IMG/VR virus record: IMGVR_UViG_3300029060_000171
Coordinates: 1-12,610 of that record
Strand: one strand, 5' to 3'
From: a virus
Taxonomy: Duplodnaviria; Heunggongvirae; Uroviricota; Caudoviricetes
DNA: 12,610 nucleotides
The notes below the pieces were generated by a model, which did not search any database, was not told the DNA's origin, and was given only the letters and a program-made list of their open reading frames with translations. Below, piece after piece: positions 1,225-12,610 of the stretch. Each line of letters opens with the position of its first letter. The first letter of the stretch is position 1. Both the position numbers and the translations under genes were made by a program.

Positions 1225-3186
1225 TCATGCCGCGGCATCCGCGTTGTTCACTTCCACCTTCACACTGTCAATCAGCAGCGTATATGTCGCCGCCTTTGAT
1301 ATGCCTGTCAGTTGCAGTTTGTCCGCCGCCCCTGATGCCGGAGATTTCACCAGTGTGAACGGCGTCCCCCGTTTCTCATCCAGTACCGGCGTCACCTGAA
1401 TGCTGTTGTTTCCGGCAAACTCAAAAGCCAGTGTGTGCCATCCGTTATCAAAGACCCCGAACGTATCCAGCTTCGCATTCGGCTTCTTGTGGTGCATCGC
1501 GTTCAGGTTCGTCGCATCCGTCTGCAGGAAGAAGGACATCAGCATGTCGTTGCCTTCCTCTGCCAGCGTCACTCCCTCCGGCAGGGACGACAACTGCCAG
1601 TAAATGCCCAGGGCAAACTGATTCGGCACCAGTGAACCCGGCAACTTAAACCGTACGCTCACACGTCCTCCTTTCTTCAGCAACTCTGCCCCCTGCCCGG
1701 CTGCATCATGCTCCAGAAACCAGATGTGGTTTTCCGGTTTATTCAGTTGCAGGGCCTTACCTCCCGTAGCCCCCGCATCACTGACCACCGCTTCAGCAAT
1801 GTTTTTGTTAACATTGTCTCCGCTCGCCGGTTTGTGATAATAGCGCCAGCCCTGTGATGCCAGGTCTTCGCCGGACGCCAGCAGACTCATCAGGGTTCGG
1901 TTACTGACCGGACCTTCCGGCTCTCTCTCCGTACCTTCACCGGAAGGTCCGGTGGGCTTCACCGTATCAGGCTGTTTTCCGGTAATGAATTCAGCGGTTC
2001 TCCCGGCATGCACAAGAATCGCCGTTGCCAGACGGTCGGAAATAATCCCACGACGTGCCCATGATCCAAAATGCGTTTTACGGTCAGCCGTCGTCCAGGT
2101 TTTGGCGTCCGTTCGACCACCGGCTCCGTAATACCCAATATCCGCAACATCCGGATCTTCTGACGGCTCGTTGGTACCCACATTTCGCCCGTTTTCATCC
2201 GTCATAAACGGCACAAAGAAGATTTTTTTTGCGGATTTCGTCTTATATGCACCATACACCGCATCGTATTGCGAAGAATAAGTCTGCTTCCAGTAGTAGG
2301 TCGTGTCGCCACAAATCCAGGGAACTGATGACGGAGAGCCCCCGAGACACTGACCTCCGAATTCCGACAGGTCAGAACGATATTTTTCCACCATGGAATC
2401 AAACAGCCCCGGCTGAGTGGCGTATGCACCCTGTTTCAAATCAAACTCGCCCTGCATCCAGACCACTGCAAGCAGAATATTTTTAGGGTTGGCCTTCAGT
2501 GCGGCCTGAGTACGGGTAAGCAGGTCCTTGTACAGTGGCTTATCTACACCCCAGCGTGCCGAGGTCTCGCTTGCGCCGGTGGATTCGCTGAAGGTACCTT
2601 CATCGCCCGCCAAAAATGCAGAACCACCACGGCAGCACGGAACCAGAAGAATACCGGCATTCGCCGGAATAAACGGCAACAATTTCTTCGCGATATGTAA
2701 TCCCTGCCCCACGCATCCATACTGAGCTGCGCTGGCTTTCGGGTGTGAAAACTTACTCAAATCCTGAACATCATGCAGGCAGTGGTCCGCAGGAATAATG
2801 TCATTGTAGTTACAGGACGCACCACCCGGCGTGACAGTGCTGCGACGCGCCAGCTGTTTAATACGCGGGTCCGGACGGTCATATGTCTCCGGCAGCGGAA
2901 GCCCTTCACCATACGCCATACCGTTTGACTGCCCGGCCAGGGCAACAACAAAGTAATACTCCGGGTTGCTGGTAGTGCTGATAACTGCGCCTTCTCCATC
3001 CGACGACTTCACCACCACAGGTGTGGTGACATCACCTTCCGCCGTAATGGCCTGCATCAGGGTATAAGGCGTGATGGCCACCGGACTGCCAAATGGCTGC
3101 CACCCCTCCTTCAGTTTTTGTGTCAGTCGTTTCGCAAGGTCTGACGGCGATGCCGCCCTGACCACGTCATAGTGTTTAAATGCCAT
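1225..3186 (-). CDS. nanS-p: prophage NanS-p-type sialate O-acetylesterase (9-O-acetyl-N-acetylneuraminate esterase): N-terminal DUF1737-like region, central SGNH/sialate-esterase-like domain, C-terminal lectin-like region; 653 aa
   Basis: ATG at 3186 with GGGAGGA Shine-Dalgarno 4 nt upstream. Size and layout match the 640-660-aa esterases found downstream of the tRNA/stx position in EHEC lambdoid prophages. Family call is by recall of that architecture, not by alignment. Confidence 0.75.
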   Translation of the reverse strand: MAFKHYDVVRAASPSDLAKRLTQKLKEGWQPFGSPVAITPYTLMQAITAEGDVTTPVVVKSSDGEGAVISTTSNPEYYFVVALAGQSNGMAYGEGLPLPETYDRPDPRIKQLARRSTVTPGGASCNYNDIIPADHCLHDVQDLSKFSHPKASAAQYGCVGQGLHIAKKLLPFIPANAGILLVPCCRGGSAFLAGDEGTFSESTGASETSARWGVDKPLYKDLLTRTQAALKANPKNILLAVVWMQGEFDLKQGAYATQPGLFDSMVEKYRSDLSEFGGQCLGGSPSSVPWICGDTTYYWKQTYSSQYDAVYGAYKTKSAKKIFFVPFMTDENGRNVGTNEPSEDPDVADIGYYGAGGRTDAKTWTTADRKTHFGSWARRGIISDRLATAILVHAGRTAEFITGKQPDTVKPTGPSGEGTEREPEGPVSNRTLMSLLASGEDLASQGWRYYHKPASGDNVNKNIAEAVVSDAGATGGKALQLNKPENHIWFLEHDAAGQGAELLKKGGRVSVRFKLPGSLVPNQFALGIYWQLSSLPEGVTLAEEGNDMLMSFFLQTDATNLNAMHHKKPNAKLDTFGVFDNGWHTLAFEFAGNNSIQVTPVLDEKRGTPFTLVKSPASGAADKLQLTGISKAATYTLLIDSVKVEVNNADAAA

Positions 3187-3368
3187 GAATCCTCCCGGCC
3201 GGGATAATATTGTGAGTAAAATAAGGAGCGGGCTGAAGTCCGGAAGTTACAGGACAATGGCAGAAGAGAGACGACAGCCCGCAATTCGAAAAAGACCGCG
3301 CAGTTGCGCAGCCTTATGAATTCTGGTTAAAATCCATTCGATTATAAAAATGTATATCTCATGCTGTT

Positions 3369-3425
3369 GCCCGAACCCACTCGGGCTTTTTTTTGCCCAC
3401 AAGAAAGCCCCTCCGGAGAGGGGCT
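3369..3425. terminator. pair of opposed hairpins: plus-strand terminator GCCCGA-ACCCAC-TCGGGC + T8 (3369..3394), and an 8-bp perfect hairpin AGCCCCTC-CGGA-GAGGGGCT (3406..3425) that on the minus strand is followed by UUCUUGU
   Basis: Both inverted repeats were read directly. The first is a textbook plus-strand terminator. The second is a possible weaker minus-strand terminator. Located in the tRNA-to-esterase intergenic region. Confidence 0.45.
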
Positions 3426-3639
3426 AAAGCCGCGTATCTGTATCATCATGCACATGATGCCGGGTGCCTCCCGGTGAGTTCAGTATCAGCACCTGAACCC
3501 GCACAGAAAGGATAAGGGGCGGTGACAAAACACCAGTTGCTGATTGCCCCTCCGCACAGGGGGATTCACCATGCCAGTTTCTTTTAACAAACTCCCCGCA
3601 AAACAGACAACTGTCAACCGTCTGAATTGTGAGACATTT

Positions 3640-3667
3640 AAAAAAAAGCCCGCAAAAGCGAGCCGGG
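3640..3667 (-). terminator. intrinsic terminator immediately downstream of the tRNA trio (minus strand: stem GCUCGC/GCGGGC, loop UUUU, then U8)
   Basis: The plus strand reads A8-GCCCGC-AAAA-GCGAGC; on the minus strand that is a 6-bp stem (one G-U pair) plus an 8-U tract, 12 nt after the 3' end of the last tRNA. Confidence 0.55.
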
Positions 3668-3678
3668 AAAAATAAGTC

Positions 3679-3755
3679 TGGCGCGTTGTACTGGATTCGA
3701 ACCAGTGACCGATTGCTTAGAAGGCAATTGCTCTGTCCGGCTGAGCTAATAACGC
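3679..3755 (-). tRNA. tRNA-Arg (anticodon UCU), CCA encoded
   Basis: Reverse complement folds as a cloverleaf: acceptor GCGTTAT/ACAACGC (one mismatch), D-arm GCTC..GAGC, anticodon stem ATTGC/GCAAT with loop CTTCTAA, T-arm ACTGG-TTCGAAT-CCAGT, then G-CCA. Matches the argO/argN-type rare-codon tRNAs carried next to Q in Stx-like phages. Confidence 0.8.
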
Positions 3756-3768
3756 AGGGTACAGATAA

Positions 3769-3845
3769 TGGACCGCCTTCGGGGACTCGAACCCCGCGCA
3801 ACCAGCTTCGAAGGCTGGCGCTCTTTCCTGATGAGCTAATGGCGG
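3769..3845 (-). tRNA. tRNA-Arg (anticodon UCG), CCA encoded
   Basis: Cloverleaf with anticodon stem CCAGC/GCTGG and loop CTTCGAA, T-arm CGGGG-TTCGAGT-CCCCG, acceptor CCGCCAT/AAGGCGG (one mismatch; unusual C1). The fold was read by hand, so the anticodon call is less certain than for the flanking tRNAs. Confidence 0.65.
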
Positions 3846-3852
3846 TATGTGA

Positions 3853-3928
3853 TGGTGGCCCTTGCTGGATTTGAACCAGCGACCTGGCGATTATGAGTCG
3901 CTCGCTCTCACCACTGAGCTAAAGGGCC
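3853..3928 (-). tRNA. tRNA with CAU anticodon, most likely tRNA-Ile2 (lysidine type, ileX/ileZ-like) rather than tRNA-Met
   Basis: Sequence GGCCCTTTAGCTCAGTGGTGAGAGCGAGCGACTCATAATCGCCAGGTCGCTGGTTCAAATCCAGCAAGGGCCACCA differs at only a handful of positions from E. coli tRNA-Ile2 (ileX) as I recall it. Anticodon loop CTCATAA. Confidence 0.8.
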
Positions 3929-3956
3929 GAGCCAAAAAATAATAATCAGATGAAAA

Positions 3957-4670
3957 TCAATAATCAAGCCCTTGCCTGGATACATATCTGTCTGGCGGGA
4001 AGCCATAATAGCGGTGAAATACAGAAATAAAGTAGGACCTGCTTGAATAACCGCATTTTTCTGCTATAGCCTGTCCATATCCATGCCGGGAACATAACAT
4101 ATTTACAGCAACACGCATCCGCTCTTCCAGCAACAAGCGACTGAACATGCCCCCTTCATTTTTCAGTTTTGTCTTTAACAAACTCTCACTCATATGCAAC
4201 TGTAGAGCAATCGCACCAAGCGTCCAGCTTGCTGATATATCTGTCTGAATTATCGCCCTGACTTTGGCACTTATGCTGGATAAACATCCACTTAAAAACA
4301 ATGACATCCGTTCATCTGTTTCAAACAGAGACAGGCAGGCCATCATAAGAAACATATCCGTGGCCTCTCCGGAAAATCCCTGGCTGGTAATTAAAGCCGC
4401 AGCCAACGCAGGATTGTTGGGTTCCAGCAACAGGTAAAGCGGAATGTCAGTCAGACGAGTCCTCGTCAGCTTATGCTGACTTTCCAGATATTGACTTACG
4501 ACGGATTCGCTTATATCGACAATTTTAACTTTGCCATAATGCATAAGGAAAAGCTCCCTGATGCATTTGGTGGCCAGAACAACTGAGCCTGGCTTAAGTG
4601 ACAACGTATCCTTTTCAAGAAAAATATTAATTGGGGAGCAAACCATGATAACTGAACAGACAACAGCCAT
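3957..4670 (-). CDS. AraC/XylS-family transcriptional regulator (237 aa), prophage cargo
   Basis: C-terminal 100 aa carries the two-HTH AraC signature (WTLGAIALQLHMSESLLKTKLK...YGQAIAEKCGYSSRSYFISVFHRYYGFPP). AT-rich codon usage. A perfect TATAAT (minus strand, at 4706..4711) lies about 35 nt upstream of the ATG. Could belong to the prophage-encoded AraC-like regulators reported in EHEC (Psr/PatE type), but I cannot confirm identity. Confidence 0.8.
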   Translation of the reverse strand: MAVVCSVIMVCSPINIFLEKDTLSLKPGSVVLATKCIRELFLMHYGKVKIVDISESVVSQYLESQHKLTRTRLTDIPLYLLLEPNNPALAAALITSQGFSGEATDMFLMMACLSLFETDERMSLFLSGCLSSISAKVRAIIQTDISASWTLGAIALQLHMSESLLKTKLKNEGGMFSRLLLEERMRVAVNMLCSRHGYGQAIAEKCGYSSRSYFISVFHRYYGFPPDRYVSRQGLDY

Positions 4671-4790
4671 TATAATTTTACTTTCATTAGCAATTGGTTA
4701 GCTCAATTATAGCCCCAAAAGGTAAATTATCATCAACACATAAGCAAAGGACTGACAGGTGTCGCCCCCCCACCAGCCGCCCATTCACCA

Positions 4791-4818
4791 CAAATAAAAA
4801 GCCTTCAGGACTGAAGGC
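4791..4818 (-). terminator. intrinsic terminator overlapping the stop codon of the 65-aa ORF (stem GCCTTCA/TGAAGGC followed on the minus strand by UUUUUAUUUG)
   Basis: Perfect 7-8-bp inverted repeat at 4801..4818, with an A-run on the plus strand at 4791..4800 (a U-run on the minus strand). Confidence 0.5.
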
Positions 4819-5002
4819 GTCTGTAACAACCGCACTGATAGTCTGCCAGACCCGCCATAACAAGCTGGGTCAGTATTAACTGGCAGCGTTCGCGTGAAAG
4901 GTAAGTATTCTGCGCAATCTCCCCGACTGTCGCCGGTTCGGTAACGCTTAATTCATCAAACACAACTCTGGCGGTTTCTGTCATATCCTGCTGTTTCAGC
5001 AT
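4805..5002 (-). CDS. small HTH/winged-helix-like protein of unknown function (65 aa)
   Basis: ATG at 5002 with GGAAAGGG about 9 nt upstream. Segment VGEIAQNTYLSRERCQLILTQLVMAGL looks like an HTH recognition helix. Ends in its own terminator. Confidence 0.45.
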   Translation of the reverse strand: MLKQQDMTETARVVFDELSVTEPATVGEIAQNTYLSRERCQLILTQLVMAGLADYQCGCYRRLQS

Positions 5003-5122
5003 GTCTTTTTACCCTTTCCGGTTAACGTGACATACCAATAACTCTTGTCTAAAAAGCCAGCAAGATAAAAAGCCAGTATTCACGACCACCAGCGTGTTTA
5101 CTGTACTGCACCAAGTTTACAG

Positions 5123-5150
5123 GTACAAAAAACCCGCTCAGTGGCGGGTT
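5123..5150 (-). terminator. intrinsic terminator about 130 nt downstream of the 205-aa gene (minus strand: AACCCGC-CACUGA-GCGGGUU then UUUUGU)
   Basis: 7-bp stem read directly at 5131..5150; U-rich tract on the minus strand. Confidence 0.55.
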
Positions 5151-5280
5151 TAAGTTGTGTGGCGAAGTAACCACTCTTAACACACTAATAGCATTTTTGT
5201 TATAACACAAGTAACTCATTCAGTATTTTTAGAATCTTGACTTTCTTAAGCACGGCGAACTCTGAATACCAAACATAAAA

Positions 5281-5898
5281 TCAATTATCTTCCAGGCCGG
5301 ATGCTATCAACGAAAGCCTCTCAAAAAACGCTGTAGCAGCCTTGTCCAAAGTTGAATAAGTACTGTATTCTCCGTGTTCGGGACCAACCACTACCCATGG
5401 TCGTCTTTTTGGGATTCGGGACTTCTCAGAAATCACTGTTCCAGATATACCAATATCAATTGTTACACCTGTTATTATTTTCTCTTCATCTCTTTCCCTG
5501 AACTCAATTGCCATAAATGCCGTTTTTTTTCGTTTCCCGTTTTTAAAAAAATCAAATAAAGCAAAGCGATGCTCATTAAAATCAACACCCCATCGTCCTT
5601 CAGGATAAAGGGCATGAAAGTTGTCATTTACGCTCTGCATCGTCTCATAAGCTTTAACTTCTAAATCTCCATAGTGCATAGATACCGCGCAGGAGTCACT
5701 GGGTAACTGTATTTTCCCAAGATTGAAAACCTTTACTGCTCCAGAACTATGGCATCTTGCCCGCAATTTATCCCCATTTATACTAATCGGAGAAATATTC
5801 CTTAATGTTCCGGGCTGGCTCCCTCCTAAGTAAACGACTGTTAAAGATTGCTTATTTTCAATTGCATCAACTAATACATGCTCTACATTTTTATCCAT
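5281..5898 (-). CDS. hypothetical protein, 205 aa, no recognisable family; AT-rich orphan cargo gene immediately downstream of Q
   Basis: The track ORF 5281..5925 starts at an ATG with no Shine-Dalgarno (it is preceded by CCUCC). The in-frame ATG at 5898..5896 has a GGGAGG Shine-Dalgarno 5 nt upstream, so MDKNVEHVLVDAIENK... is the likely start. Flanked by a 5' hairpin and a 3' terminator. Confidence 0.7.
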   Translation of the reverse strand: MDKNVEHVLVDAIENKQSLTVVYLGGSQPGTLRNISPISINGDKLRARCHSSGAVKVFNLGKIQLPSDSCAVSMHYGDLEVKAYETMQSVNDNFHALYPEGRWGVDFNEHRFALFDFFKNGKRKKTAFMAIEFRERDEEKIITGVTIDIGISGTVISEKSRIPKRRPWVVVGPEHGEYSTYSTLDKAATAFFERLSLIASGLEDN

Positions 5899-5900
5899 AA

Positions 5901-5935
5901 TAACCTCCCAATGAACAGGTATCATCAGGAGGTTA
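5901..5935 (-). promoter_or_regulatory. Shine-Dalgarno-sequestering hairpin in the 5' leader of the 205-aa gene (mRNA: UAACCUCC - 19-nt loop - GGAGGUUA - UU - AUG)
   Basis: Perfect 8-bp complementarity between 5928..5935 and 5901..5908. The downstream arm is the Shine-Dalgarno itself, and the start codon begins 2 nt after the stem. Confidence 0.5.
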
Positions 5936-5973
5936 TAATAAAATATGATTATTTACTTTGATTGAATTTATTA

Positions 5974-6345
5974 CTATATGTAACAATCAATTTCTAAAGA
6001 TACCCCCAACATTGCCAGACAACCGTCAATAAACCCTTCAGCTTTCTGCAGTCTGATAACAACCTGATTAAGTGATATCCCCAGTTTTACCCCCAACACC
6101 CGTAATGTAACCCCATACACATAATACATTTCCAGTAATTCGTATTGATACGGTTCCTTTTTCTTAAGAACTGTCATCGCAGAGCTAATGATCAGGCCAT
6201 CGTCATCGCTACATTGCGGGCGGGATTTTACTTTCGAAGGAATTAATCCCTTAAAACCTGCAGCAACAGATGACCATTCCACATCCTCGTGATTATTTGC
6301 CACCCATGCCCCCCAACGTTCAAGAACCATTTGAATATCACGCAT
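5974..6345 (-). CDS. Q: late-gene antiterminator Q, QuuD/phage-82 type (about 123 aa)
   Basis: N-terminus MRDIQMVLERWGAWVANNHEDVEWSSVAAGFKGL matches my recollection of DLP12 QuuD / Q82-family proteins; the C-terminus is sigma-region-4-like. ATG at 6345 with GGAGAAA Shine-Dalgarno; the track ORF extends to a TTG at 6360. Confidence 0.75.
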   Translation of the reverse strand: MRDIQMVLERWGAWVANNHEDVEWSSVAAGFKGLIPSKVKSRPQCSDDDGLIISSAMTVLKKKEPYQYELLEMYYVYGVTLRVLGVKLGISLNQVVIRLQKAEGFIDGCLAMLGVSLEIDCYI

Positions 6346-6362
6346 CAACTTTCTCCACAAAA

Positions 6363-7358
6363 TCAGGCCAGCACGCCTATTGCCAGCGCACGATCGATAA
6401 AACGAAATATCAGCTCCAGCTGGGAGCCATACTTCTCTTCAAATGCCACGGTATCCGCATGCAGCTCGTCGTGATGCTTTCTGCACAAAGGCAGCACGAA
6501 GAGGTCATGCGCTTTTGTACCCATTCCCCCCTGACCGTGGCCTATCAGGTGGTGGGGATCATCAGCAGGCTTTCCACAACATGCACACGGCTGCGTCTTA
6601 ACCCAGCGCGTGTACTTTTCATTAACCCAGCGGCGACGTTTGGGGCGTAACATAAAAGACTCCGGCGACTCCGGATCCACTTTCAGCGCCAGCACCTTTT
6701 TCGCTTTATCCTGGATGATGCTGGTGGCAGGAACCGAAGGCACAAGGTCACTTTCCCGGGTGACAGACGGCACAACAGGCTTCGGTAATCTCAGTGCCTT
6801 ACGGGCTGCACTTTCCGGTAAGGCATCCGCCAGGTCATTACGAATCAGCCACCAGCACAGTTCCGGCATTGTCACAACGTGACTGTCATCAAAACCGAGA
6901 TCCCGACGCACAACAGACAACACCCAGCGGGCACAGTTATCCGTTGCCATTGATTCCAGCCGTTCCGTGAACTGATCGCGCAGCTGGTTATCGCAGTGCC
7001 AGCACAGACGGATTGCACCCGGAGCGTGTCGCATTGTGGTCATGTTCTCGCTGTGCCATCCGGAATGAGGCCACTGGCAGCCTTTTTCACGAAGTAACCA
7101 GCTTTCAAGACATTCCACGCCACCAGCACGACGGATCACTGCCTCATGGCGGAACACGGCCCGAACGGCAGGATCATCCGCCAGCGGTTGTGATGCCGCC
7201 GGAACGGCACCACTGGCGAAAGATGAATAACGCTCCGGCTCAGGCTCCAGCAGGACACGCCCCTGCATAAACAGGGGCATCAGCTCTGAACCTGGCCTGA
7301 ACAATACGATCCCCATACGCGGGGCAATTTCAGGGGTCAGTAGTGCTCTCACAGTCAC
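6363..7358 (-). CDS. DUF968-like (YdfU-like) nin-region protein with C-terminal Cys/His-rich HNH-like motif (331 aa)
   Basis: C-terminus CACCGKPADDPHHLIGHGQGGMGTKAHDLFVLPLCRKHHDELH. Position just upstream of Q matches ydfU in Qin-type prophages. Start is a GTG directly after the KilA-N stop; exact start uncertain. Confidence 0.65.
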   Translation of the reverse strand: MTVRALLTPEIAPRMGIVLFRPGSELMPLFMQGRVLLEPEPERYSSFASGAVPAASQPLADDPAVRAVFRHEAVIRRAGGVECLESWLLREKGCQWPHSGWHSENMTTMRHAPGAIRLCWHCDNQLRDQFTERLESMATDNCARWVLSVVRRDLGFDDSHVVTMPELCWWLIRNDLADALPESAARKALRLPKPVVPSVTRESDLVPSVPATSIIQDKAKKVLALKVDPESPESFMLRPKRRRWVNEKYTRWVKTQPCACCGKPADDPHHLIGHGQGGMGTKAHDLFVLPLCRKHHDELHADTVAFEEKYGSQLELIFRFIDRALAIGVLA

Positions 7359-9056: not shown

Positions 9057-9706
9057 GCCGCCATCTCCCTGACCAGTTTTTCCGCCTGCTGGCGAACCTG
9101 CGCCAGAAACGCCTCACCACATGCCTCAAGTTCATCGCGCCCTATGTAGCTGATTGCCGGTCCCTTCCAGGTCTTGTCGAAAACAGCAATAGCACCAGCG
9201 AAGAAAGCACCTGTTGGCACCTGCTTTTCGTCTTTCGGGATAAACCAGGCAGGCAGTTCAAAACCAATACGCCCGCGAATAAAAGCAATATGATCTGCAT
9301 CTTCCGGCCACCACACTTCGCTGGTGGCAGCTTTGATCAGGAAAACATAGCGCCCGCCTTTATCACGCATGGCACTGGCATGCTTCATGATGTAACGCAT
9401 GCCTGTGATGTATTGCCCCTCATGCTGACTGGCGCGGCTGTACGGGGGATTACCAAAGGCAGCACCTTTAAGCTCCGCAAGACGTTCAGACCAGTCATGC
9501 GCCAGCGCGTTGTCTTCCGCAGTGTAATAAGCGGCACATTTGGCGTTATCACCATCAGTGAACAGATCCAGAACAAACGGGCCAAACAGGGTGTTAATTC
9601 CCCAGAAAATGTTGTCCGGCGTGCGCCACTGATCGCCCACTTCCTTCAGTTCATGGGCTGGTTTGTTCCGCAGCTCCACCAGCGCCTGGCAATATTTATT
9701 ACTCAT
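9053..9706 (-). CDS. phage-type DNA N6-adenine methyltransferase (Dam family), 217 aa
   Basis: Motif GNPPYS (the NPPY/DPPY catalytic motif) in a protein of the size and position typical of lambdoid nin-region Dam methylases. ATG at 9706 with GGGGG Shine-Dalgarno (the track start at 9739 is a GTG). Confidence 0.85.
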   Translation of the reverse strand: MSNKYCQALVELRNKPAHELKEVGDQWRTPDNIFWGINTLFGPFVLDLFTDGDNAKCAAYYTAEDNALAHDWSERLAELKGAAFGNPPYSRASQHEGQYITGMRYIMKHASAMRDKGGRYVFLIKAATSEVWWPEDADHIAFIRGRIGFELPAWFIPKDEKQVPTGAFFAGAIAVFDKTWKGPAISYIGRDELEACGEAFLAQVRQQAEKLVREMAA

Positions 9707-10200
9707 TAAGCCCCCACGTAATTCCCTGACAGATACCACTCTTCACCCGATGCAGCGCGCTTGCTGCTTTTCCGTAAGCACCGCTCACGATGCGCCAGAA
9801 AATTGTTTCGTTCTGGCTGGGAGTGGCTTTCACGGAATGCCTCCATCCACACCGTTGCAGCTCGACGGAATAAGCCCCTGGACTCCAGTTCTTCCGCCTG
9901 GCGAGTCAGGCACAAAATCACCTGCGGGTCGTTAGTGCCGACACAGAAATTGCGCACAGGTCTGGTTTCACGAACTGGTTGTGGTTCCGGCTCCTGTGCT
10001 CTCTCAGTCAGGCGCGGGAAATGTCTGCGTGTATCTCCTTCACAACGGTGAGCCACACGCCCACTCTGACGTAACTTGCTTGCTGACTGCAGAACGCGCT
10101 GCCGTGAGTAACCTGCAAAAGCATCCGCAATGTCTCCGGAAGTACACCCCGGATGGGCTTCAATGAATTTCTGAACTTCATTCAAAAGACTCATGATCAC
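9706..10200 (-). CDS. PerC-family-like protein (YfdN-like), 164 aa: N-terminal HTH-like region plus C-terminal PerC-like motif
   Basis: C-terminal AEELESRGLFRRAATVWMEAF...ERNNFLAHRERC resembles the PerC/Pch motif (LE..GLWRRAA..W ... RR..C) as I recall it. Same size and Dam-adjacent position as yfdN in CPS-53. Assignment unverified. Confidence 0.55.
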   Translation of the reverse strand: MIMSLLNEVQKFIEAHPGCTSGDIADAFAGYSRQRVLQSASKLRQSGRVAHRCEGDTRRHFPRLTERAQEPEPQPVRETRPVRNFCVGTNDPQVILCLTRQAEELESRGLFRRAATVWMEAFRESHSQPERNNFLAHRERCLRKSSKRAASGEEWYLSGNYVGA

Positions 10201-11015: not shown

Positions 11016-11236
11016 GCAGCACCTCCGAGATGCTTCATGTTTTTTCCGGAGCGAAAGGCTATAAGCGGCATACTGACGCGGTAATTACGGCCCAGCGGTT
11101 CACAAATCACCTTCTGACATTCACGGTCAACCAGGCTAACACGTAGAACATGCCCTGCAGGCGTGGTGTACCACTGACCCGGACGAGGACAACGGAAAGT
11201 ATGATTGGTAAACCGTTTGAAAATATTCCGGATCAT
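11012..11236 (-). CDS. small Cys-containing protein of unknown function (74 aa)
   Basis: ATG overlaps the Rha stop (ATGA) and is preceded by AGGGGG Shine-Dalgarno. Its stop overlaps the O-like start. A diverged homolog is encoded upstream at 11779..12105 (shared MIRNIFK.FTN and PG..YT..A). Confidence 0.45.
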   Translation of the reverse strand: MIRNIFKRFTNHTFRCPRPGQWYTTPAGHVLRVSLVDRECQKVICEPLGRNYRVSMPLIAFRSGKNMKHLGGAA

Positions 11237-12105
11237 TTACGCCCCCTTACCTCTGAAGGGTTCAGCGACAAATTTATGAGACTGGCCAGTAGCGCCGCGT
11301 CGTTGATGCGGTCATACAGACTTACAGCCAGCGGGGATTCGGCTTTTGCCAACATGGGATAAAGCTGCTGCAGCCAGACCTTGTGGATTACCGACAGGTG
11401 GGAGTAAAGCACGCTGGCGTTATCTGCGGCATCGCTCAGCGTGGATGGCTTTGAAAGCAGTTTTTCCATCTGGTTAAAGGCATTGATGTATGCCTCTTTG
11501 AACCGGGCAGCACGTTTACCCGTGAAACCCATAGCAAGAAACGCAAAGCCGTCGCGGGTTATTTGATAGCAAGGTAGTTTGCGGCCTGTGCAATCGGTGT
11601 AATCACTCACCGAAAAATTGCGGGCAGTGAATGATGCAGAGCATTCAAGCGTGCGGATCTTTTTCAGTACATCGTCATGACGTTTGGAGAAGAAGTTGGC
11701 AACAGCCAGGGATGAAGTAACAGCCTGACCATCAACGATGGCAATTTCAGGTTGAGTGAGGGTTGGGATCGTAGCCATGATGGCAGCCTCTTTGGTGATT
11801 TTTAATAACTCACCACCAAGGCTTTCCACGACCTTATTGGTGGTGAGACGTACAGGGGTGGAAATACCGGTCACCAAAGAACCCGGCCCAACCGAAGTTG
11901 GCCCTGCACGCCCCACCATAATTTGGGCGTAACGATGCTCATGACACGAAAAAACCGCATGAGCGCGGTTGTGCTCTATATTGAATTTCGGGTTTCCACG
12001 CCCGGCACCCGCTTTATAAGGTGCCTGAACAGTGTAACGTCCCGGAATTGCAGAATCAATATGCTGGTGGCGATTGGTAAACAGTTTGAAAATATTCCGG
12101 ATCAT
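11233..12105 (-). CDS. rha: Rha-family phage regulatory protein. The Rha domain is 11233..11778 (181 aa, own AAAGAGG Shine-Dalgarno and ATG at 11778); the ORF continues in frame upstream to an ATG at 12105, adding 109 aa homologous to the 74-aa small ORF.
   Basis: TSSLAVANFFSKRHDDVLKKIRTLE ... GRKLPCYQITRDGFAFLAMGFTGKRAARFKEAYINAFNQME is the Phage_pRha signature. Whether the product is a 290-aa fusion or two proteins cannot be decided from sequence. Confidence 0.7.
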   Translation of the reverse strand: MIRNIFKLFTNRHQHIDSAIPGRYTVQAPYKAGAGRGNPKFNIEHNRAHAVFSCHEHRYAQIMVGRAGPTSVGPGSLVTGISTPVRLTTNKVVESLGGELLKITKEAAIMATIPTLTQPEIAIVDGQAVTSSLAVANFFSKRHDDVLKKIRTLECSASFTARNFSVSDYTDCTGRKLPCYQITRDGFAFLAMGFTGKRAARFKEAYINAFNQMEKLLSKPSTLSDAADNASVLYSHLSVIHKVWLQQLYPMLAKAESPLAVSLYDRINDAALLASLINLSLNPSEVRGRK

Positions 12106-12610
12106 TTACGCCCCCTTACCTCTGAAGGATTCAGCGACAAATTTATGAGGCAGGCCAGCGCCGAAGCATCATTAATATAGTCATACAAGCTAACAGCCAG
12201 CGGAGATTCGGCTTTTGCCAACATAGGATAAAGCTGCTGCAGCCAGACCTGATGAATTGATGAAATGTAGGAATAGAGAACGCTGGCGTTATGTGCAACG
12301 TCGCTCGGTACAGCGGGCTTTGAAAGCTGTTTCTCCATCTGGTTAAAGGCATTGATGTATGCCTCTTTGAACCGGGCAGCACGTTTCCCCGTGAAGCCCA
12401 TGGCAAGAAACGCAAAACCGTCGCGGGTGATTTGGTAACAAGGGAGTTTGCGGCCTGATGCGTCGGTGTATTCACTTAACACAAAATTGTGTTCAGTAAA
12501 TTCAGCGGAACATTCGAGGTTTCTAATTCTATCTAAAACCCGCTCATGCCGTTTAGTAAAGTAATTAGCTACTGCAAGAGATGTGGTGACAACGCGACCA
12601 TTGATAATCG
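12073..12610 (-). repeat. second copy of a tandem paralogous duplication of about 868 bp (first copy about 11205..11778): Rha gene 3' portion plus the start of the following small ORF
   Basis: The two copies align throughout with frequent substitutions. They include identical runs such as CTGGTTAAAGGCATTGATGTATGCCTCTTTGAACCGGGCAGCACGTTT and the junction GTTTGAAAATATTCCGGATCATTTACGCCCCCTTACCTCTGAAGG. Confidence 0.7.
12102..12610 (-). CDS. rha: Rha-family phage regulatory protein, paralog 2, N-terminus outside window
   Basis: Frame is open from the window edge; translation ...TTSLAVANYFTKRHERVLDRIRNLECSAEFTEHNFVLSEYTDASGRKLPCYQITRDGFAFLAMGFTGKRAARFKEAYINAFNQMEK... is a diverged paralog of the first Rha protein. 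The track start at 12482 is a GTG inside the real ORF. Confidence 0.7.
   Translation of the reverse strand, partial: IINGRVVTTSLAVANYFTKRHERVLDRIRNLECSAEFTEHNFVLSEYTDASGRKLPCYQITRDGFAFLAMGFTGKRAARFKEAYINAFNQMEKQLSKPAVPSDVAHNASVLYSYISSIHQVWLQQLYPMLAKAESPLAVSLYDYINDASALACLINLSLNPSEVRGRK

Follow-up and report, generated by a model that had tools for sequence, protein, structure and literature searches.

The DNA analysed here (the window, a stretch of 12,610 nt from a caudovirus record) carries a gene for an AraC/XylS-family regulator between the phage antiterminator gene Q and a group of tRNA genes. This raises the question of what the regulator is, whether it has taken the position in which Stx phages carry their toxin genes and whether the small ORF beside it is its partner. 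We hold with considerable confidence that it is an allele of PsrB, a YdeO-like AraC-family activator that lambdoid prophages carry as cargo of their late region, that it would be expressed both from its own promoter and by Q-dependent read-through, and that the 65-aa ORF is a generic gene outside the Psr mechanism. All sequence features named in the original prediction were recovered in place, and it is the interpretation of some of them that changes.

The AraC-family gene and its identity

The psrB-type gene occupies 3957..4670 on the minus strand and encodes the 237-aa AraC/XylS regulator that had been predicted. The ORF is intact, so the gene is not a pseudogene fragment, and both Pfam domains score above their cut-offs (HTH_AraC: 50.3 bits, E 2.4e-13, cut-off 26.6; HTH_18: 39.8 bits, E 5.8e-10, cut-off 33.6). 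The protein was assigned to phrog_1450 and, among solved structures, the GadX DNA-binding domain and Rns come nearest to it. The closest curated profile is NCBIfam YdeO (NF007407), which aligns residues 1-229 with 1-230 of its 253 positions (E 4e-31); the alignment extends over the full length and contradicts the short N-terminal domain proposed at first. With 108.5 bits the match stays below the curated equivalog cut-off of 348, and the GadX profile covers the C-terminal, DNA-binding half (E 1.2e-24) at 87 bits compared to a cut-off of 500. Judged by these profiles the protein is a phage-carried, YdeO-like paralogue and neither YdeO nor GadX. A start at Met43, which gives the 195-aa form of the Sakai annotation, has the better Shine-Dalgarno sequence (GGGAG). 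However, residues 1-42 are kept down to homologues of 38% identity and Met43 is not, and we therefore favour the 237-aa start and regard the Sakai annotation as too short. PADLOC gave no defence-system match above noise for this gene or for the 65-aa ORF.

The regulator had been placed in the Psr/PatE class of prophage AraC regulators with host targets, and an alignment against those proteins had been proposed as a check. We observed 234/237 identical residues (98.7%) for Sakai ECs_2191, 90.7% identity for PsrA (ECs_1087) and 37% identity across a full-length alignment for the likely PatE. High identity to PsrA and PsrB and a C-terminal AraC-type double helix-turn-helix DNA-binding domain, the marks of the Psr family, are both found in the 237-aa protein. 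The substitutions relative to the O157 protein ECs_2191 are A103V, H196Y and I202V; these exchanges are conservative, and PsrA likewise has His at position 196.

According to PMC13502914 psrA is ECs_1087 (ecs1087). ECs_2191 is the same protein as EDL933 WP_000301797.1 (1,905,274-1,905,987) and was assigned as PsrB by elimination, by its 91% identity to ECs_1087 and by its position in EDL933. The 91% agrees with the 90% identity published for PsrB and PsrA (PMC10877973). Among the O157:H7 genomes listed there were at most two psr-type gene copies per genome, and mostly two. Two reviews put psrA at z1789 in OI-50 / CP-933N (PMC10877973, PMC8565820). We detected no AraC gene in the RefSeq Sakai Sp6 and EDL933 CP-933N regions, nor in Sp10 and CP-933R; since Sp6 and CP-933N are without the gene, the nomenclature of the psr loci in the literature is not fully consistent. 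From the sequence comparison the gene is almost certainly an allele of PsrB, the studied prophage regulator of E. coli O157:H7. Given the identities to PsrB and PsrA and the YdeO profile as the closest one, the Psr class had been guessed correctly and the element is already known: it is a further copy of a characterised regulator.

Gene order, terminators and position of the cassette

On the minus strand we found the expected order of Q, a 205-aa gene, the 65-aa ORF, the AraC gene and three tRNA genes. Q (5974..6360) is of the PF06530 type (Pfam Phage_antitermQ, E 1.5e-47); in the RefSeq annotation of S88 it starts at 6345 and comprises 123 aa. The 205-aa gene (5281..5898, minus strand; phrog_8498) encodes a WYL-domain protein, and its ATG at 5898 is preceded at a distance of 6 nt by the Shine-Dalgarno sequence GGGAGG. 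In a structural superposition the N-terminal ~70 residues of its product match the CapW and BrxR WYL domains at 1.3-1.4 Å. The gene is absent from locus L016 and from Sp4 and Sp11 of Sakai, and represents an insertion after Q and ahead of the late terminator, outside the Psr cassette.

Between 3300 and 6500 we counted 13 terminator-like sites compared to 3.2 ± 1.7 in shuffled sequences. Two intrinsic terminators had been described as the ends of the 65-aa ORF and of the 205-aa gene. Both are present and the first was correctly attributed: it lies at 4791..4818 (minus strand), overlaps the stop codon of the 65-aa ORF and consists of a 7-bp stem (4801-4818) and a U-tract, the stem being followed by UUUUUAUUU (-11.2 kcal/mol). 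It is kept in 7/7 aligned copies, where the Stx2k-phage copy shows a different loop with the stem retained. The second, at 5123..5150 (minus strand; AAACCCGC/GCGGGUUU followed by Us, -13.8 kcal/mol, z = -2.4), was missed by the pattern scan. It does not end the 205-aa gene, whose stop codon (5281) lies 130 nt upstream, and it opens a conserved post-Q block. Conservation starts near 5183; in L016 the block comes right after Q, in Sp4 and Stx2a_1447 after other cargo. As it directly follows Q elsewhere and as the post-Q terminator of Sakai Sp10 has a near-identical hairpin, we assign 5123..5150 as the late terminator (tR'-like).

The sRNA HnrS (Sp9, Sp10, Sp12) was considered as an identity for the block at 5183-5123 and rejected; outside the tRNA region only the terminator hairpin matches Sp10, and no Rfam family was found on the same strand of the block. 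The late terminator and the 65-aa ORF are separated by a conserved leader of 94 nt (5015..5108, minus strand), which also occurs after Q in SfV, L012 and L017 and, without the cassette, in Sakai Sp6 / EDL933 CP-933N. A hairpin within the leader (5072-5093, -7.4 kcal/mol, z -0.9) is not significant. A 56-aa ORF at 5049-5219 has no Pfam or PHROGs family match and was treated as non-coding because it overlaps the terminator and the leader.

The three phage tRNA genes (3679..3928, minus strand; CAU ileZ-type, Arg-UCG and Arg-UCU, detected by ARAGORN and Rfam tRNA) begin 28 nt past the AraC stop codon, and no terminator was found between this stop codon and the first tRNA. The first intrinsic terminator downstream of the AraC gene follows the third tRNA (3647..3664, minus strand; -11.5 kcal/mol, z -2.85). 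A promoter-like sequence, TTGATT-17-TATTAT, is located at 3967-3939.

The cassette had been thought to occupy the position equivalent to stx. We took the stx slot as the interval bounded by the phage tRNA genes and the nanS-p esterase gene, and the AraC gene lies outside it, upstream of the tRNAs. In phiSTEC1575-Stx2k and Stx2a_1447 (loci L003 and L019) the stx genes are downstream of the tRNAs, which speaks against an equivalent position. As phiSTEC1575-Stx2k has this same cassette before the tRNAs and stx2k after them, the cassette occurs together with stx and not in its place. The order in Sp4 is Q, a cargo gene, the small ORF, PsrA, ileZ-argN-argO and the esterase gene, and in Sp11 it is Q, the small ORF, ECs_2191 and the tRNAs. 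In Sp10, which is closely related to Sp11 and has the same Q type, exactly the 1185 bp of the cassette are missing from the interval between late terminator and tRNAs, and the psr cassette is thus dispensable cargo.

Expression and function of the regulator

The perfect TATAAT reported upstream of the AraC gene is present at 4706-4711 on the minus strand. It forms the -10 element of a predicted sigma-70 promoter-like site (4706..4733, minus strand) with ATGATA as the -35 element and a spacer of 16 nt, which matches 10/12 consensus positions in the pattern scan. The region shows no excess of promoter-like sites (6 compared to 6.1 expected), so the match is weak if taken alone. The TATAAT is kept in PsrA, PsrB and the Stx2k-phage copies and reads TATACT in variants of 77% identity. 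For the 65-aa ORF the pattern scan found no promoter-like site. The separate transcription units that had been proposed are thus borne out in part: they fit the AraC gene, which has an upstream terminator and its own promoter-like site.

The region was also correctly described as AT-rich: the GC content is 0.33-0.47 over 3900-6150 compared to 0.51-0.56 on both sides. Compared with a phage moron, a cargo gene that sits among phage genes and is transcribed independently, the AraC gene has a conserved predicted promoter and a conserved upstream terminator, no terminator directly after it, a GC content of about 0.44 compared to 0.51-0.56 in the flanks, and a clean presence/absence difference of 1185 bp between Sp11 and Sp10.

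From this anatomy we infer that the gene, which is flanked by the terminator at 4801-4818 on its upstream side and by the phage tRNA genes on the other, would be expressed in two ways. In the lysogen its own sigma-70-like promoter (4706-4733) would drive psrB independently of Q, and because of this promoter psrB could be made without Q. During lytic growth the Q-modified polymerase from the late promoter would pass 5123-5150 and 4801-4818 and would also transcribe psrB.

PsrA and PsrB bind the gadE and hdeA promoters, raise GadE and YhiF, increase glutamate-dependent acid resistance and, in strains with the LEE island, indirectly repress type III secretion (PMC10877973, PMC8565820). By analogy the psrB product here would activate gadE, yhiF and hdeA and raise acid resistance. 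[quoted passage not shown] The AraC gene here belongs to the late region of a lambdoid prophage, and a PerC-domain gene at 9706-10200 of the same prophage, within the window, matches the association with Pch regulators. No complete genome matched the whole window at more than ~97%, and those nearest to it come from ExPEC-type strains without the LEE, for example S88. This is a PsrB-type allele in a prophage with its closest relatives in strains to which only the acid-resistance branch is applicable, and in a LEE-less host this branch is likely, again by analogy, to be the relevant Psr output.

It is rather unlikely that the gene is silent or decaying cargo in its present host, either H-NS-silenced or never expressed, and confers no phenotype. 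The AT-rich region (GC about 0.40-0.45), the change of psrA expression with a counter-silencing sRNA (PMC13502914) and a promoter that is a pattern match only would all fit such silence, whereas the ORF is intact, the exact 237-aa protein occurs on at least 1000 contigs, the N- and C-terminal regions are conserved in the family and deletion and complementation phenotypes have been published for both PsrA and PsrB (PMC10877973).

The 65-aa gene and comparison with known systems

The 65-aa HTH-like ORF of the original prediction is a real gene (4805..5002, minus strand; phrog_331, a family with no annotated function) and a homologue of SfV orf47. Its AlphaFold2 model (pLDDT 90.5) is a winged helix with three helices and a beta-hairpin, and dN/dS values of about 0.05-0.28 against six other copies indicate purifying selection. 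Foldseek returned generic winged-helix domains only and there was no NCBIfam match. TrmB (PF01978), the name that RefSeq gives to some copies, reached 17.8 bits compared to a gathering score of 25.6.

The small ORF had also been regarded as a partner of the AraC gene. It lies upstream of that gene in every Psr-type locus examined (window, S88, 96_1414B, Sp4, Sp11, the Stx2k phage and L015-L017), and Sp11 has, and Sp10 lacks, both genes together as a single block of 1185 bp. It nevertheless appears distinctly improbable that the two form a functional regulatory module in which the small protein is a co-regulator of Psr or its anti-activator. In 5426 complete E. coli genomes, the 65-aa ORF was found in 2398 (4409 places) and the AraC gene in 830 (1444 places), roughly a threefold excess of places for the small ORF, and the majority of the 57 phage records that contain it are without an AraC gene. 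In SfV, mEp460 and the Stx2a phages it is followed by a DNA methylase gene with no AraC gene, and the pair is split in L012 and L013 by a methylase gene, either alone or together with a TolA-like gene. Furthermore, 39%-identical AraC homologues in lambda-like phages have no small-ORF neighbour, the Sakai Sp4 copy, which adjoins the studied psrA, has a frameshift after residue 49, and a conserved terminator separates the two genes. By this distribution the 65-aa ORF is a common phage gene and no Psr-specific partner.

The phrog_331 protein is acidic. In many lambdoid phages, among them those with Stx2a, Stx2c and Stx2d, its gene is conserved as the first one past the late terminator. The gene is thus generic for this position, lies outside the Psr mechanism and is probably late and Q-dependent. 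The protein could be a so far unrecognised late-operon regulator, which might set the expression of the variable downstream cargo (DNA methylase, Psr) or might modulate read-through at the terminator overlapping its own stop codon. Separately, psrB may share a transcript with the rare-codon tRNAs, by which its own AUA and AGR codons are read. We give this reading a small chance.

It is highly improbable that the AraC-like protein acts chiefly on the phage itself, for instance on its late genes, the timing of lysis or the tRNA genes, and not on host genes: its gene does lie in the late operon directly before the tRNAs with no terminator between, and 39%-identical homologues occupy the Q-to-holin interval of viable lambda-like phages, but the host targets gadE, yhiF and hdeA have been published for proteins of 98.7% and 90.7% identity (PMC10877973, PMC8565820), the cassette is dispensable between Sp10 and Sp11 of one Q type, and several carrier prophages are defective, with the lysis genes of SS17 fused to a truncated capsid gene.

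The comparison of Sp11 with Sp10 delimits the cassette, which measures 1185 bp in Sp11 and runs from the leader through the small ORF, its terminator and the promoter to psr. SfV orf47 is 92% identical to the 65-aa protein and, like its gene, lies about 110-120 nt past a post-Q terminator behind the same 90-nt leader. The next gene in SfV, mEp460 and the Stx2 phages encodes an N6/N4 DNA methylase, whereas in the window it encodes the AraC regulator.

PsrB itself (Z2104 / ECs_2191; prophage Sp11 / OI-57) has the same length as the protein described here and differs from it at three residues. The two loci also share the upstream small ORF, the terminator, the promoter-like site and the position directly before the phage tRNAs. 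However, the carrier Sp11 has a Q of the DUF1133 type and two tRNAs, whereas the prophage in the window has a Q of the PF06530 type, three tRNAs and an extra WYL gene after Q that is absent from Sp11. The PsrA locus in Sakai Sp4 resembles the window in its gene order, with one cargo gene between Q and the conserved block, and in its tRNA trio and downstream esterase. Its Q belongs to the same Pfam family and is 58.7% identical. The cargo after Q is a CAAX protease in Sp4 and a WYL protein in the window, and in Sp4 the small ORF is frameshifted and psrA is annotated in the 195-aa form.

PatE (Z0321, OI-8), which we take to be EDL933 WP_000246059.1, is likewise a prophage-borne AraC-like protein and an activator of acid-resistance genes. 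It resides in a different kind of prophage remnant, outside the Q-to-tRNA slot, and is only 37% identical. YdeO and GadX, finally, are chromosomal AraC-family activators of the GAD acid-resistance regulon, and according to the literature this target regulon is common to them and the Psr proteins (PMC10877973).

Layout of the late region and identity of the AraC-family gene

The genes concerned are all encoded on the minus strand, and together they make up the late-regulatory region of a lambdoid prophage. From the Q antiterminator gene (5974-6360; Pfam PF06530, E 1.5e-47) the region runs through a 205-aa gene (5281-5898), a strong hairpin terminator (5123-5150), a 65-aa ORF (4805-5002), a second terminator (4801-4818), a 237-aa AraC-family gene (3957-4670), three tRNA genes (3679-3928) and a terminator (3647-3664) to a nanS-p-type sialate esterase gene (1225-3186) and a holin gene (332-547). 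The AraC gene and the 65-aa ORF were both found as the original prediction had described them, and both AraC-type helix-turn-helix Pfam domains scored above threshold. The expected AT-richness was also seen: GC content drops to 0.33-0.47 across 3900-6150 compared to 0.51-0.56 in the flanks. The stretch 3600-6400 occurs at 98.8-99.9% identity in E. coli S88 and ∼27 further complete genomes; for the whole window there was no complete-genome match above ∼97%. At the far end of the window two adjacent ORFs of Rha/Ash-type regulators (11233-12105 and 12102-12482, minus strand) are almost identical in their C-terminal halves, which makes them a partial duplication in tandem, and the S88 annotation lists one of the two as a truncated pseudogene.

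The AraC-family element is already known, its product being near-identical to an experimentally studied protein. The discoverers' laboratory assigned psrA to ecs1087 in prophage Sp4 of strain Sakai in a 2026 paper (PMC13502914). Gene order in Sp4 matches that of the window (Q, one cargo gene, small ORF, ECs_1087, ileZ-argN-argO, esterase), and with the upstream start ECs_1087 is 90.7% identical to the window protein. O157:H7 strains typically carry two copies of the AraC gene. The second copy, ECs_2191 in Sp11, is the same protein as WP_000301797.1 at 1.905 Mb in EDL933 and shares 234 of 237 residues with the window protein. ECs_1087 and ECs_2191 share 91% identity, in line with the 90% published for PsrB and PsrA (PMC10877973). 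On this basis we regard ECs_2191 as PsrB and the gene in the window as an allele of it. With the likely PatE, an AraC-family protein from the OI-8 region of EDL933, the window protein shares only 37% identity. The proposed alignment against PsrA, PsrB and PatE thus upholds the assignment to the Psr class. The best curated profile was YdeO, aligned over the full length (E 4e-31, far under the equivalog cut-off), followed by GadX for the DNA-binding half; the nearest solved structures were the GadX DNA-binding domain and Rns. For psrA (z1789), two reviews give a location in OI-50/CP-933N (PMC10877973, PMC8565820). We found no AraC-family gene from Q to the esterase gene in either Sp6 of the RefSeq Sakai genome or CP-933N of EDL933, and the published psr locus-tag nomenclature looks inconsistent.

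In the Sakai annotation ECs_1087 and ECs_2191 have 195 aa each and start at Met43. Across an alignment reaching down to 38% identity, 9 of residues 1-42 never vary, and four of the more divergent homologues have another residue in place of Met43, which makes the 237-aa form the real one. Of the 5426 complete E. coli genomes searched, 830 carry the gene (595 of them at 99% identity or more). It is not the pseudogene fragment that had been considered as a possible refutation, the exact protein occurring on at least 1000 contigs.

Terminators and the 205-aa gene

Both predicted terminators are present as good structures with a hairpin and a U-tract, at −11.2 kcal/mol for 4801-4818 and −13.8 kcal/mol for 5123-5150. 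Across 3300-6500 we counted 13 terminator-like sites compared to 3.2 ± 1.7 in shuffled sequences, an approximately fourfold enrichment. Homology between contexts starts at ∼5183 for Sp4, Stx2a_1447 and L016, at 5150 for the Stx2k phage and mEp460 and at 5108 for SfV, L012 and L017. In L016, a comparison locus with the Q type of the window, the conserved block begins 38 bp past the Q stop codon, and the 205-aa gene with its flanks is thus a ∼790-bp insertion in the window. The hairpin at 5123-5150, AACCCGCCACUGAGCGGGUUUUUU, is almost identical to the post-Q terminator of Sakai Sp10 (L006, ∼25640-25665), and the preceding sequence differs. The tRNAs of Sp10 come straight after this terminator, and Sp11 compared to Sp10 has a clean 1185-bp block between the post-Q terminator and the tRNAs, comprising a leader, the small ORF, a terminator, a promoter and psrB. 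Sp10 is also among the three prophages from which the 66-nt sRNA HnrS was reported. Stx phages have a constitutive pR'-to-tR' arrangement (PMC7547250), and by analogy 5123-5150 is probably the late terminator tR'; a pattern search did not find pR'.

The 205-aa protein belongs to phrog_8498 (PHROGs function: unknown). Superposition at 1.3-1.4 Å places its N-terminal ∼70 residues on the WYL domains of CapW and BrxR, which sense ssDNA, and DriD was matched by the same region. The protein has no helix-turn-helix domain, and its C-terminal half is beta-rich (model pLDDT 74.5). Being inserted downstream of Q and ahead of the late terminator, the gene could be transcribed in lysogens from the constitutive late promoter. 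At 5895-5942 (minus strand), AUAACCUCC pairs with GGAGGUUAU in a hairpin of high stability (−23 kcal/mol, z = −5.25; no equally stable structure in 200 shuffles). This hairpin buries the Shine-Dalgarno sequence of the 205-aa gene, which suggests that its translation is controlled.

The 65-aa ORF and the position relative to stx

With dN/dS values of 0.05-0.28 against six other copies, the 65-aa ORF is a real gene. The AlphaFold2 model is a compact winged helix (pLDDT 90.5), similar only to generic winged-helix domains such as the N-termini of IclR and MarR and methyltransferase dimerisation domains. The protein is net acidic by our own count, falls under the Pfam TrmB threshold and belongs to phrog_331 (PHROGs function: unknown). 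When 1.8 billion representative proteins were searched with a profile of it, just ∼100 clusters came up; apart from three, these are short stand-alone proteins no longer than 145 aa. The ORF occurs at 4409 places in 2398 of the 5426 genomes and in 57 phage records, including Stx2a, Stx2c and Stx2d phages, phiP27, SfV (orf47), cdtI and mEp460. It had been proposed as a partner of the regulator, which is not borne out. An N6/N4 DNA methylase directly follows the small ORF in SfV, mEp460 and Stx2a_1447, whose annotations were examined, and the copy beside psrA in Sakai Sp4 (ECs_1086, L008 28343-28582, annotated as 79 aa) is frameshifted after residue 49. At L012 and L013, whose AraC genes are more diverged (63% and 59% identity), the small ORF and the AraC gene are separated by a methylase, and lambda-like phages with a 39% AraC homologue are without the small ORF. 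A pattern scan found no promoter-like site upstream of it. The ORF is best read as a generic first late gene past the terminator.

The region had also been described as the stx-equivalent position, which is wrong. Stx2a_1447 has, in this order, Q, two reverse-strand genes, the small ORF, a DNA methylase, ileZ-argN-argO and stx2AB; the corresponding series of phiSTEC1575-Stx2k is Q, small ORFs, the 65-aa ORF, the AraC gene (91.6% identical), three tRNAs and stx2k. The place of stx is therefore past the tRNAs, and a phage can carry it alongside the Psr cassette. The stx-equivalent interval of the window is 3187-3678, from the last tRNA to the esterase gene. It contains a strong Rfam match to the sRNA STnc100 (3395-3603, minus strand; 130.6 bits, gathering score 47) and, at 3339-3391 on the plus strand, a match to the anti-sRNA AsxR whose 63 bits are exactly the gathering score; the same element matched AgvB below threshold. 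The AsxR-matching element ends in a terminator (3369-3386).

Expression and proposed function

The TATAAT predicted upstream of the AraC gene is present at 4706-4711 with ATGATA 16 nt upstream. Promoter-like matches in the region are no commoner than in shuffled sequence, so by itself this one proves little. The PsrA, PsrB and Stx2k-phage copies retain the −10 element, which reads TATACT in 77%-identical variants. Judging from this anatomy, the conserved upstream terminator and the promoter-like site would give Q-independent expression of the AraC gene in the lysogen, and during lytic growth Q-modified polymerase would read through into it. The 28 nt from the AraC stop codon to the first tRNA contain no terminator, and part of a second promoter-like site (TTGATT-17-TATTAT, 3967-3939) falls within the end of the gene. 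AUA accounts for 5 of its 15 Ile codons and AGR for 6 of its 13 Arg codons; these are the codons decoded by the adjoining ileZ-type and Arg-UCU tRNAs.

The same prophage encodes a 164-aa Pch/PerC-type regulator in its early-right operon (9706-10200, minus strand; C-terminal PerC domain, Pfam E 2.5e-8), in agreement with the reported co-occurrence of psr and pch. The closest complete genomes are ∼5-Mb human isolates, e.g. S88, and Psr homologues have been noted in neonatal-meningitis E. coli (PMC10877973). PsrA and PsrB raise GadE and YhiF, and the promoters of gadE and hdeA (−132 to −45 in the latter) are bound by PsrB; acid resistance goes up, and in LEE-positive strains type III secretion is indirectly repressed (PMC10877973, PMC8565820). 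For S88-like hosts the acid-resistance branch alone would apply. The YdeO/GadX-like sequence of the window protein fits this published mechanism of PsrA and PsrB.
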